Origin: Spirochaetia bacterium
GTDB taxonomy: Bacteria; Spirochaetota; Spirochaetia; DSM-16054; Sediminispirochaetaceae
DNA length: 64,000 nt
Direction of reading: 5' to 3'
NCBI GenBank assembly: GCA_034520965.1
Contig: JAXHMY010000008.1
Location: 64,001-128,000 of the forward strand
Within the stretch, counting starts at the first letter, position 1. Each line of letters opens with the position of its first letter. The notes beneath the pieces were generated by a model. The model saw nothing but the letters and a program-made list of their open reading frames with translations, had not been told where the DNA came from and made no database searches. This document shows positions 35,878 through 39,238 of the stretch, piece by piece. A program made the translations under genes and the position numbers.

Positions 35878-37074
35878 GTGAAGTTGCAGAGGCTGGATAG
35901 GGTGGCACTGTTTGCCGCCTTATCACTTTTTTTGTCGATAATCGAACTTGTCATACCCAAACCAATCCCTTTTTTTAGGCTAGGCCTGGCCAATTTGCCG
36001 TTGTTAATTGCTCTGACTTTTTTTAATCGGCGTGAATTTGTGCTTCTGGTACTTTTAAAGGTCTTTGGGCAGGGGATTGTCTCCGGTACCCTCTTTTCAT
36101 ACGTGTTTTTATTTTCTGCAACCGGAAGTTTTTCCTCCGGTGCGGTTATGCTGCTGCTGCGCAGATGGTATCCAAAGGGAATCTCTCTTGTGGGAATCGG
36201 GGTAGTGGGAGCCTTCGCAAGCAATAGTGCCCAGCTGCTGTTTGCCTCGCTGTATATTTTTGGACGGAGTACCTGGCTGATTGCACCACTATTTTTACTG
36301 ATTGGAACTGTCAGCGGGATGATTCTAGGCGCTACTGCCGGCTATCTATTGCAGCATTCAAGATGGCTGGCGGTTATGCCGGTTGAAGAGTCGCCGGACC
36401 AGCCTTCCCAGCCTCCAAAACATGAAAAACATGCGGAAAAGATGGATGCACCCGTTGTGCGGGTTACACCCATGGTCCGGCTCCTCACCGGTTTGTTGAT
36501 GATTGCTCCTTTTATAATGCAGCCTCAGATTCTCCTCAAGTTTGTCCATATTCTGCTGTTTGGTGTGGCTTCTCTCTACCTGGGAAAGCGTGTGCGAATT
36601 CTTCCCGGAATAATGATAGCTGCCGCAGTAACCGGAGCCCAATTGTTGACTCCTCTAGGCGAGGTGCTTACCTACATCGGCTCCTTCCCGATTACCGCTG
36701 GGGCCCTCCGGCAGGGTGTGCTGCGGGGGCTGAACTTGGTGGGATTGGTATATTTGTCACGGTATGCGGTTTCTTCGGGGCTGCCGATCCCCGGGAAATT
36801 GGGTGCGCTTCTCTACAGGGTGTTTTATTACTTTGAAGAATTGACTGCCTATAGGGTGGTACGGGACAGGAGTACCGGTTTTCGGGGGAATATCAAACAG
36901 GCTCTTATGGGAATAGACGGTTTTTTATTGGAGCTTTCGCTTTCATCAGCAGGAGCAGCTGAAGGCAGAGCGGCAAAGCTGGTTATGCCGGGACTCGGTG
37001 TCCATATAATACTGCCATTGGTGGGTGTAGGGCTCCATTGGATTCTATATGCGGTCGGGTTTGTATATTTATGA
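35878..37074 (+). CDS. Gx transporter family (so-called heptaprenyl diphosphate synthase component I) protein with C-terminal EcfT-like membrane domain
   Basis: LSIIE..IPKP.PF.RLGLAN, SGTLFS, S.VG..V.GA..SN..Q; second hydrophobic domain with ITAGALRQG..RGL.L. Confidence 0.7.
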   Translation: MKLQRLDRVALFAALSLFLSIIELVIPKPIPFFRLGLANLPLLIALTFFNRREFVLLVLLKVFGQGIVSGTLFSYVFLFSATGSFSSGAVMLLLRRWYPKGISLVGIGVVGAFASNSAQLLFASLYIFGRSTWLIAPLFLLIGTVSGMILGATAGYLLQHSRWLAVMPVEESPDQPSQPPKHEKHAEKMDAPVVRVTPMVRLLTGLLMIAPFIMQPQILLKFVHILLFGVASLYLGKRVRILPGIMIAAAVTGAQLLTPLGEVLTYIGSFPITAGALRQGVLRGLNLVGLVYLSRYAVSSGLPIPGKLGALLYRVFYYFEELTAYRVVRDRSTGFRGNIKQALMGIDGFLLELSLSSAGAAEGRAAKLVMPGLGVHIILPLVGVGLHWILYAVGFVYL

Positions 37075-37102
37075 AAAGGAGTATAAAATTTCGGCTGTTG
37101 TA

Positions 37103-37131
37103 TTGACATAGTTGTAGAGTACTGTTAGCGT
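37103..37131 (+). promoter_or_regulatory. sigma70 promoter of the ilv-leu leader
   Basis: TTGACA(37103-08)-17-TAGCGT(37126-31) with extended TG. Confidence 0.65.
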
Positions 37132-37174
37132 TCTTGTAACTATAAACTTTCACTTATTCTGAGGAGAATGCAGT

Positions 37175-37378
37175 ATGCAGAACGCAATAATGAACGTGAT
37201 GACCGCTATTTCAATTTCTATTATCGCCCTCATCATCATTATTATTGTTGCAAGTCTGTCTCTCCTAATTACCAACCTGCTACTAAGCCTATCGGGCATT
37301 ATTATTCTACTAATTAGTGGAGCTCGAGGTGAGTTCCATTGTTCCTGCCGTAGTAATACGGCCCCTGCACACTGCTAA
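37175..37378 (+). CDS. Ile/Leu-rich attenuation leader peptide of the ilv-cim-leu operon
   Basis: SD GAGGAG 8 nt upstream; 15 Ile, 10 Leu and 2 Val in the first 47 codons; 6 of 10 Leu codons are CTA; directly upstream of ilvB. Confidence 0.8.
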   Translation: MQNAIMNVMTAISISIIALIIIIIVASLSLLITNLLLSLSGIIILLISGARGEFHCSCRSNTAPAHC

Positions 37379-37570
37379 ATAGCAGCCCGCAGCGGGAAAA
37401 GCATAGGAACAATGAAGCTACCTCGACTCATCCACCCTGGTTATAGGTATATCTAAAGTATAGATATGCAGGTAACCGGGGACCGGTATATCCTAAAGTC
37501 GAGAGCTGCTGCCGATTGTTCCTCCTTTTCTCACTCCTGCGGGAATGTCTTAAATTGAGAGGAGGAGAGG
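37324..37570 (+). promoter_or_regulatory. Alternative-helix RNA switch ending in an SD-sequestering stem
   Basis: 37324-46 pairs with 37405-26; 37386-427 alternatively pairs with 37498-543; 37522-33 pairs with SD region 37556-67. Confidence 0.7.
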
Positions 37571-39238
37571 ATGAAAGGCGCGAGAATACTGGTTGAAGCA
37601 TTAAAAAAAGAGGGAGTTGATACTCTTTTTTGTTATAACGGCGGGGCCGTTATTTCGATTTTTGATGAGCTTTACACCCACGGTAAAGAGATCAATTTAA
37701 TCCAGCCCCGGCACGAGCAAGGGGGAACCCATGCTGCTGATGGGTACGCCCGTTCAACCGGCAAACCGGGGGTTGTATTAGTAACCTCCGGTCCGGGGGC
37801 TACCAATACCATCACCGGTATTGCTACCGCATATATGGATTCGGTGCCCTTGGTGGTGTTTACCGGGCAGGTGTCTACCGGAATGATAGGGACCGATGCG
37901 TTTCAGGAAGCTGATACGGTGGGCATCACAATGCCCATTACTAAAGCCAACTTTCTGGTAAAGAACGTAGAGGAACTTGCTTCTACGGTGAAGAAGGCCT
38001 TCCATCTGGCTATCACCGGCAGACCGGGTCCGGTGGTTGTGGACATCCCCAAGGATGTTCAGATGGACGAGACCGATTTTTCCTACCCCCTTACTCCCGA
38101 CTTGCCCGGATATCGGCCCAAGGATAGCGGCCATCCTCGCCAAGTGAAAACCCTGAAAAAATACCTTCATGAAGCCCGTAAGCCGGTGGTCATCTCCGGT
38201 GGAGGGGTAAACAGCGCCGGAGCAACCGAGCTGATGAACGAGTTCTGTGATCGCTACGGTGTACCGGTGGTGACAACTCTGCTGGGCCATGGAGTTTCCC
38301 CACAGCATGAAGAGCTCAATTACGGACCAATCGGAATGCACGGTTCTCTGTACGGTAACTATGCCCTGCAAAATTGTGACCTGCTTATGGCATTCGGGAC
38401 CCGCTTCTCCGACCGTATTATGGGGGATCCCGATGTGTTCGCCGAACAGGCTCGAATTGTTCACGTAGATATTGATGCTGCAGAAATCGGAAAGAACATT
38501 TCTGTTGATTTGCCGATAGTGGGGCCGATTTCCGGTGTGTTGGAGGAGCTCAACCGCGAGGAGAGCTACGCTGACTATTCCAAGTGGGTAGAAGAACTCC
38601 GAGCATACCGTAGCGAAAACCCCCTCGAATTTGATCAAAGCGATGTTTTAAAGCCGCAATACCTTATCCAACTTGCACAGAAGTACTTTCCCGAAAATAC
38701 CATAGTAGCCTCCGATGTAGGCCAGAACCAGATGTGGGTGGCTCAGTACTTTCACTTTCATCGCGGCCGTCGTCTGCTTACCTCCGGAGGCCTTGGTACA
38801 ATGGGCTACGGCCTGCCTGCGGCTATTGGTGCTGCAGTTGGGAACCCGGATGCCCAAGTACTGACGGTATCCGGGGATGGGGGCTTCCAAATGAATATGC
38901 AGGAAATGGCTACCGTGAAGCAGTACGGGCTGAAAGTAAAAATGCTGGTTCTGGACAATAGTTGCCTCGGTATGGTGCGCCAGTGGCAGCAGTTGTTATT
39001 TGATAAGCGCTACTCAGGTACATGCATGAATGATAACCCGGATTTCGGCTTGATGGCAAAAGCAATGGGTATTCCTTCATTGAAGCTTGAAAAAGTTTCC
39101 GAGGCCGAGCAGACAATGAAGGCCTTTGCCGAGAGCGAGGGGAGTATGCTGCTGCATGCCGTGATTGAGGGCGAAGAGAACGTGGTTCCGATGGTACCGG
39201 CGGGAAAACCTTTAGATAAAGTAATTCGCAAAATCTAG
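37571..39238 (+). CDS. ilvB: Acetolactate synthase large subunit
   Basis: RHEQG..HAADGYAR, TSGPGATN, AFQEAD, DVGQNQMW, GDGGFQMN, LGMVRQWQ. Confidence 0.97.
   Translation: MKGARILVEALKKEGVDTLFCYNGGAVISIFDELYTHGKEINLIQPRHEQGGTHAADGYARSTGKPGVVLVTSGPGATNTITGIATAYMDSVPLVVFTGQVSTGMIGTDAFQEADTVGITMPITKANFLVKNVEELASTVKKAFHLAITGRPGPVVVDIPKDVQMDETDFSYPLTPDLPGYRPKDSGHPRQVKTLKKYLHEARKPVVISGGGVNSAGATELMNEFCDRYGVPVVTTLLGHGVSPQHEELNYGPIGMHGSLYGNYALQNCDLLMAFGTRFSDRIMGDPDVFAEQARIVHVDIDAAEIGKNISVDLPIVGPISGVLEELNREESYADYSKWVEELRAYRSENPLEFDQSDVLKPQYLIQLAQKYFPENTIVASDVGQNQMWVAQYFHFHRGRRLLTSGGLGTMGYGLPAAIGAAVGNPDAQVLTVSGDGGFQMNMQEMATVKQYGLKVKMLVLDNSCLGMVRQWQQLLFDKRYSGTCMNDNPDFGLMAKAMGIPSLKLEKVSEAEQTMKAFAESEGSMLLHAVIEGEENVVPMVPAGKPLDKVIRKI

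Follow-up and report, generated by a model that had tools for sequence, protein, structure and literature searches.

In the window, the 64,000-nt stretch of DNA analysed here, ilvB is preceded by a long leader whose RNA forms a terminator-less switch, and the folding models support an action of this switch on ilvB translation. The element is real and conserved; in the sequence-only reading that first described it, the output logic is right and the trigger is wrong. We put at roughly 50% the probability that the leader is a gate-and-timing translational attenuator, in which output would be set by the timing and number of ribosomes passing over the leader tail and not by the site at which a ribosome stalls. 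The sensor is likely helix 0, a gate that lies upstream of the coordinates covered by the sequence-only reading.

The leader and its operon comprise the following features:
37103..37131, + strand: predicted promoter (TTGACA, 17-nt spacer, TAGCGT), read from the sequence, with a probable transcript start at about 37139
37161..37167, + strand: Shine-Dalgarno sequence (SD) of the leader ORF, likewise read from the sequence
37175..37378, + strand: leader ORF of 67 aa, with 27 Ile/Leu/Val in codons 1–47 and none in the 20-codon tail
37571..39238, + strand: ilvB, TIGR00118 above cut-off, first gene of the operon
from ilvB at 37571, + strand: operon in the order ilvB-ilvN-ilvC-cimA-leuA-leuC-leuD-leuB

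Profile matches identify ilvN, cimA, and leuA, while ilvC, leuC, leuD, and leuB were assigned by eye on their translations. Between 39250 and 41714 the window carries overlapping ORFs instead of intact ilvN, ilvC, and cimA; in alignments with both L002 and L007, its ilvN and ilvC show single-base indels, which are either assembly errors or recent decay.

The family comprises 17 genomes, and a search widened to the order yielded these 17 again. In 15 of them the beginning of the ilvB orthologue is present (one of the other two lacks the gene start and one gave no match), and the long leader is present in all 15. A sixteenth leader, L046, lies on a metagenome contig and is the one new family leader among at least 160 loci from IlvB scans of metagenome and genome contigs, the other 159 being outside the leader counts. 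By genus, the 16 leaders divide into g1 (n = 10, the window's own genus), g4 (n = 3), and g2 (n = 3). An SD lies upstream of the leader start in all complete relatives (in L010 counted from the second Met), and TTGACA is found 5′ of the leader in 15/15 leaders having that DNA. A consensus promoter scan left the TTGACA/TAGCGT promoter unflagged, and the same scan, having missed the main promoter, showed no second promoter for ilvB.

The leader ORF precedes a biosynthetic operon and is rich in cognate codons, as in a classical attenuator. Over the 16 leaders, which as kin are not independent, CTA accounts for 66 of 126 Leu codons (6% in the genome) and ATT for 166 of 234 Ile codons (43% in the genome), a bias that argues for a sensor instead of a membrane protein in its own right. 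The leader peptide gave no NCBIfam family and no Atlas match, and Rfam 15 covariance models on 36000–38500 gave one match (E 0.93), which lies outside the leader.

The family offers a natural comparison, because a classical ilv attenuator stands on a paralogous ilvB in the same genomes. There, 12 of 13 loci (L206–L217) have a Val/Leu-rich classical leader bearing both a GC stem and a U tract, for example:
G000 C7, start 108168, − strand: paralogous-ilvB leader L209, a classical attenuator

Among 15 orthologue loci of other families, 8 carry a short leader, again with GC stem and U tract, and together with the paralogous loci this points to the terminator-less form as a family-specific replacement. 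The family's terminator-less leaders span 54–67 codons, versus 23–40 in classical ilv attenuators. The eight classical leaders of other families (L016–L019, L021, L025, L026, and L029) have a terminator stem sequence in common, and all eight look leaderless, since TTGAC lies only 35–39 nt 5′ of the leader start in 8/8. When the genome was scanned twice for related leaders ahead of other operons, only the paralogous-ilvB attenuator and one unplaced Thr/Ile mini-ORF came up, the first scan being insensitive enough to miss the ilvB leader itself. The mini-ORF, a Thr/Ile-rich 10-codon ORF with an SD on the + strand of G000 C2 at 399403, lies about 120 nt 5′ of a gene and is a possible thr-type leader.

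The entrance to the leader ORF is closed by a helix of its own, which the sequence-only reading missed, as it did the latch hairpin described below:
37162..37266, + strand: helix 0, the gate, formed by the leader SD, start, and first codons on one side and the Ile run with Leu codons 30–31 on the other

The first 105 nt from the leader SD fold into one long hairpin (z −4.36, 0/200 shuffles) in a region with inverted repeats I1/I3. The SD pairs with Leu codons 25–31 in 13 of the 15 complete leaders, from three genera, and the pairing probability is at least 0.89 in 12 leaders; in L003 and L008 the SD favours a local upstream partner. Both sides have changed in 6 of the 33 pairs of helix 0. Opening of the leader ribosome-binding site (RBS) costs 8.5–18.8 kcal/mol, and at least 13 kcal/mol in 10/15 leaders, a level that ordinary genes with a GGAG SD (250 of 621 tested) reach in 8 of 250 cases. 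The cost exceeds both null means in 14/14 leaders; in single-leader tests (3/50 or better), the synonymous null is beaten in 6/14 and the codon-order null in 8/14. The null costs are themselves already 6–11, because Leu and Ile codons are pyrimidine-rich. The paralogous terminator-type leaders (n = 12) have RBS costs of 4.8–17.8, two of them at 13 or more, indicating that some self-pairing accompanies any Leu-rich leader, and the terminator-type leaders of other families have costs below 6 in 7/8.

The gate responds to the position of the ribosome. A ribosome sitting on the Ile/Leu codons (about 18–37 in the window) brings the cost of opening the leader RBS down to 3.9–7.3 kcal/mol, and the gate shuts again behind the ribosome past about codon 39. 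In the growing transcript, the cost rises from 8.4 to 15.6 once 37255–37270 is exposed.

RNA data came from four small-share salt-lake metatranscriptomes, as contigs only, mostly less than 95% alike and silent on ends and levels. Contigs of relatives leave 37036–37119 uncovered in 4/4 runs, a weak indication, and start at 37164–37184 in three of the four runs and at 37238 in the fourth. Starts at 37164–37171 fall at the foot of helix 0, some 25–30 nt past the predicted transcript start.

The same run of codons could be read as a target for Rho. In that account, which we consider unlikely, the C-rich, G-poor Ile/Leu run would be a Rho loading site shielded by stalled ribosomes, and the helices would merely pause polymerase or couple translation. 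Rho is encoded in the genome, and the run is 108–141 nt long with C at 0.22–0.28 and G at 0.09–0.17 in 16/16 leaders, but this composition follows from the Ile/Leu codons, and the ribosome-free run lies mostly inside helix 0, which makes it a poor single-stranded site. RNA contigs are deeper on the leader than on the stretch just 3′ of it in 3/4 runs, although contigs cannot rank expression, and in one run an unbroken single contig extends through to 38208. Loading of Rho would furthermore leave unexplained the retention of the 2:3 helix and the second uORF of genus g4, both described below.

Downstream of the control codons, the proposed switch is built from these elements:
37316..37340, + strand: latch hairpin, a self-fold of segment 1 after ribosome passage, present in the 2:3 fold
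37320..37347, + strand: segment 1, with 25 pairs to 37404–37429 and 92% of alignment cells paired
37348..37399, + strand: two hairpins inside the 1:2 domain, of which the second contains the leader stop codon
37386..37429, + strand: segment 2 (2a, 37386–37401; 2b, 37404–37429), bearing AGGA and AUG
37435..37481, + strand: spacer hairpin, a bridge between segments 2 and 3 with a putative role as timer
37497..37543, + strand: segment 3, whose partner is segment 2 or the ilvB SD
37556..37573, + strand: segment 4, the ilvB SD and start codon

All four segments were found where the sequence-only reading had placed them, and three of its pairings, 1:2, the spacer hairpin, and 3:4, together make up the minimum-free-energy (MFE) fold of 37320–37580 (−113 kcal/mol, z −7.04, 0/200 shuffles). 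Its alternative 2:3 pairing forms on masking of segment 1, with 35 pairs between 37386 and 37543, and the 2:3 state lies about 5 kcal/mol above 1:2 plus 3:4. The 9-mer at 37338–37346 has an exact copy at 37515–37523, and both are complementary to 37405–37413. Duplex energies in the window are −37.8 for 1:2 and −48.7 for 2:3 (0/200 dinucleotide shuffles each), and −21.4 for 3:4 (8/200).

Conservation differs among the helices. Helix 1:2 surpasses 200 shuffles in 16/16 leaders (at most 5/200), helix 2:3 surpasses shuffles in 10/10 g1 leaders and L013/L014 and not in g4 or L012, and helix 3:4 does so clearly in just 2/16; the segment windows of these duplex tests were hand-set and may have missed a 2:3 partner in g4 and L012. 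In a 10-row alignment, both sides have changed in 3/25 pairs of 1:2 and in 8/35 of 2:3, the modest figure for 2:3 arising from shifts of register. The inner and spacer hairpins have both sides changed in 14/36 pairs (0/500 shuffles). The proposal that 3:4 hides the ilvB SD stands insofar as the pairing is present in the MFE fold, but it concerns the weakest helix, for which the 10-row alignment gave no covariation signal. The latch, scored within genus g1 only, has 10 pairs, 4 of them changed on both sides (0/500 shuffles). The barrier to return to 1:2 is higher once segment 3 exists in 9/10 leaders (19.4 versus 6.6 in the window); latch barriers are low in L005 (4.5) and L006 (4.8).

A scan of the + strand of the leader found no terminator-like site, in agreement with the earlier claim that none is present. 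T runs reach at most 4 in the final 75 nt of the window's leader, and they are no longer than 4 in 12/16 leaders, the window's included, versus at least 6 in 11/12 paralogous attenuators. These counts speak against a disguised classical logic, in our judgement a poor candidate, in which 1:2 would be the starvation antiterminator and 2:3, enclosing the spacer hairpin and with a U-rich tract after it, would be a weak intrinsic terminator. Such a design would fit the 5–7 T that follow the 2:3 core in L004, L005, L006, and L046, and it has a parallel in terminator-type relatives, whose antiterminator arm, judged by eye, likewise lies past the last control codon. However, the 2:3 pairing extends beyond the T tract, the read-through state leaves the ilvB SD shut (4–12 kcal/mol), and segment 3 is missing in g4. 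A terminator-like hairpin lies early in ilvB, at 37635–37653; hairpins of this kind occur at the frequency expected by chance for the scan.

In the folding model, a ribosome keeps 13 or 16 nt unpaired, counted from the P site. The polarity drawn in the sequence-only reading, with 1:2 plus 3:4 closed, 2:3 open, and a ribosome on segment 1 opening ilvB, is upheld in this model: opening the ilvB SD costs more in the 1:2 state than with a ribosome on or past segment 1 in 10/10 g1 leaders (for L008, the scan covers positions up to +5 only). Accessibility of the SD thus depends on segment 1 occupancy in the model, a footprint there lowering the opening cost. The ilvB RBS of L013/L014 goes from 9.7 in the 1:2 state to 6–8 after the flip, and that of L012, also of g2, changes little. 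A ribosome on segment 1 would therefore be the ON state in all three genera, with L012 doubtful. A direct action of the Leu-codon anti-SD on ilvB was considered and rejected, as a ribosome on the run barely alters the ilvB SD. Equilibrium folding did not reproduce antitermination in the classical controls, which cautions that kinetic switches escape such folds.

The proposed trigger, a stall on codons 42–47, fails in the model, since a ribosome stalled there falls short of segment 1 and 1:2 plus 3:4 stays. Segment 1 begins 4–8 nt beyond the last Ile codon. When codon 47 occupies the A site, opening of the window's ilvB SD costs 11.8 kcal/mol with the 13-nt footprint (12.1 kcal/mol with the 16-nt footprint); the 13-nt figure drops to 1.7 for codon 54 and to 0.1 for the leader stop. 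The flip comes at codon 53–54, not 47, and is then maintained to the stop, so the SD would be opened by a ribosome traversing the Ile/Leu-free tail. The companion claim, that full translation means OFF, holds if tail passage precedes the synthesis of segment 3 and not otherwise.

That a ribosome on codons 42–47 itself weakens 1:2 so that 2:3 wins is accordingly very unlikely. L013/L014 do flip when the last Ile codon occupies the A site, and L039 one codon later, and multiloop energies carry an error of several kcal/mol, a general uncertainty that counts in favour of a direct stall; against it, the flip needs 4–7 further codons in the window, in L002–L007, in L046, and in all g4 leaders. Direct stalling also runs into a paradox, in that free re-initiation would send more ribosomes over segment 1 in plenty than in shortage, which is the wrong sign.

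A further alternative invokes a second frame over segment 1:
37317..37382, + strand: +1-frame ORF covering segment 1, with many Val/Ile/Leu codons, which has a part in this alternative only

That starved ribosomes slip or hop and stall on Ile-Val codons centred on segment 1 has in its favour 45 Ile/Leu/Val codons in seven g1/g4 lineages versus 29–32 expected from composition nulls, an SD opened to 0.7–4.9 in g1 by a ribosome placed there, and the frameshift-driven opening of ermC with ketolides described in part of PMC5009743, but it is highly improbable: no shifty site was seen, g4 has no +1 start codon, stops lie just 5′ in L010 and L011, a hop would be caught by in-frame AUU codons, g2 lacks the enrichment, many of the T's are required by 1:2, the latch, and an inner hairpin, and the kin counted are not independent.

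In g4, the output takes a different form. Segment 2 is there the locked RBS of a second uORF whose end overlaps the ilvB start (3/3), and there is no segment 3; coupling of this uORF to ilvB would give the same polarity by a different route. A segment-2 uORF in genus g1 was rejected as not conserved, the segment 2 AUG of the window opening 14 codons only. In L012–L014, the spacer hairpin carries an SD-like GGAAGG 9 nt 5′ of an ATG, kept between segment 2 and ilvB, and the ORF runs into the start of ilvB, with an overlap of 4 nt (L012) or 26 nt (L013/L014); this g2 ORF is possibly a coupled uORF. L008 has a duplicated SD and ATG, in another frame, about 17 nt 5′ of the ilvB start.

The gate-and-timing attenuator would combine these elements as follows. 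The helices, their conservation, the g4 uORF, and the footprint dependence in the folding model are computed; all of the timing, a single round of initiation, how long the latch lasts, polarity, and a regulatory response to Ile/Leu itself we infer. The first ribosome would load onto nascent RNA ahead of the synthesis of codon 30, and helix 0 would then close behind it, the leader SD pairing with Leu codons 30–31 and shutting the leader. With charged tRNA-Ile/Leu plentiful, this lone ribosome would track polymerase and clear segment 1 before segment 3 is made, so that 1:2 and then 3:4 would form and ilvB would stay untranslated, the later genes of the operon following through polarity or decay. 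With Ile/Leu scarce, the 27 slow codons would hold the ribosome back; on codons of about 18–37 it would keep the gate open, and further ribosomes would queue. Late or queued ribosomes would cross segment 1 with segments 2–4 already made and free segment 2, which would strip segment 3 from the ilvB SD and turn ilvB on, while the latch hairpin would retard the return to 1:2. In the g4 variant, the freed segment 2 would be the RBS of the uORF coupled to ilvB.

A toy simulation with assumed rates demonstrates that this logic is feasible, not that it is actual. With the gate, the open-time fraction rises from 0.005 to 0.19 at 4-fold slowing; without it, the response has the wrong sign (0.67 to 0.02). 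Induction with the gate is 2.5- to 40-fold and larger where the basal level is near zero, with 2.5-fold at fast initiation and a collapse at extreme starvation. Delay by itself already induces.

Leader-peptide switches in the literature found rely on the position of the stall. The conserved geometry excludes such logic in most of the leaders described here, and a self-occluding helix at the entrance would offer one of arrival time and ribosome number. A broader statement, which we advance tentatively and at somewhat less than even odds, is that the leader is a traffic or timing sensor of amino acids whose control codons lock their own entrance, whose slowing keeps it open, and whose late or queued ribosomes in the tail would switch the gene on; the output module would be exchangeable between genera (anti-anti-SD helix or second uORF), and the device would have replaced a terminator-type attenuator in one family. 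If true, it would be a new terminator-less way for tRNA charging to set gene expression.

In E. coli, the trp leader is able to occlude its own RBS once termination has occurred. A comparative survey by Lopatovskaya and colleagues (2010) may cover leaders of the kind described here. Among the papers listed by full-text literature searches, none was on the ilvB element or on a self-gating amino-acid leader. Classical ilv attenuators (E. coli, Corynebacterium ilvB-II), as far as PMC10272879 presents them in the parts available, share the Ile/Leu/Val-rich, CUA-rich leader before ilvB; unlike them, the leader described here is longer and has no GC stem with U tract, and thus no intrinsic terminator. 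As for tna-type Rho attenuators, Rho and a run with C above G are present, but the run is folded.

The ermC-type attenuators, in the portions of PMC8274638 and PMC5009743 available, resemble the ilvB leader in setting 1:2 and 3:4 against 2:3, a ribosome on segment 1 freeing the SD, and the two-leader ermA/ermB cascades in the same portions have a second leader ORF, comparable to g4. Alternative helices that hide or free the target SD are likewise found in the ilvB leader, with 3:4 lacking covariation. There, a drug arrests the ribosome at the helix-breaking position; here, the slow codons stop short of segment 1 and none lie in the tail, so that a stalled ribosome does not cover segment 1, L013, L014, and L039 alone coming near to it.

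Initiation-level attenuation with downstream polarity has been established experimentally for mycobacterial poly-Cys leader ORFs such as Ms5788A, according to the sections of 10.1101/834739 available. The ilvB leader would share amino-acid sensing at translation initiation, and differs in that Ms5788A, in those sections, has one duplex of control codons with the target SD and a leaderless ORF, whereas here an SD-led ORF of 54–67 codons, self-occlusion, and a multi-helix relay are found. The LEU element, 5′ of leuA in Actinobacteria, is described in the available part of PMC1262725 as terminator-less, with a Leu-codon run that pairs with an SD box; the ilvB leader is also terminator-less and also has Leu codons paired with an SD. 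In the LEU element as presented there, it is the SD of the regulated gene that pairs, whereas here the partner is the SD of the leader itself, with additional helices or a second uORF leading on to ilvB; pairing of control codons with the SD of the regulated gene, common to the LEU and poly-Cys leaders, is thus absent from the ilvB leader. The same part of PMC1262725 lists several other terminator-less leaders of unclear mechanism, and these merit a check for pairing with their own SD.
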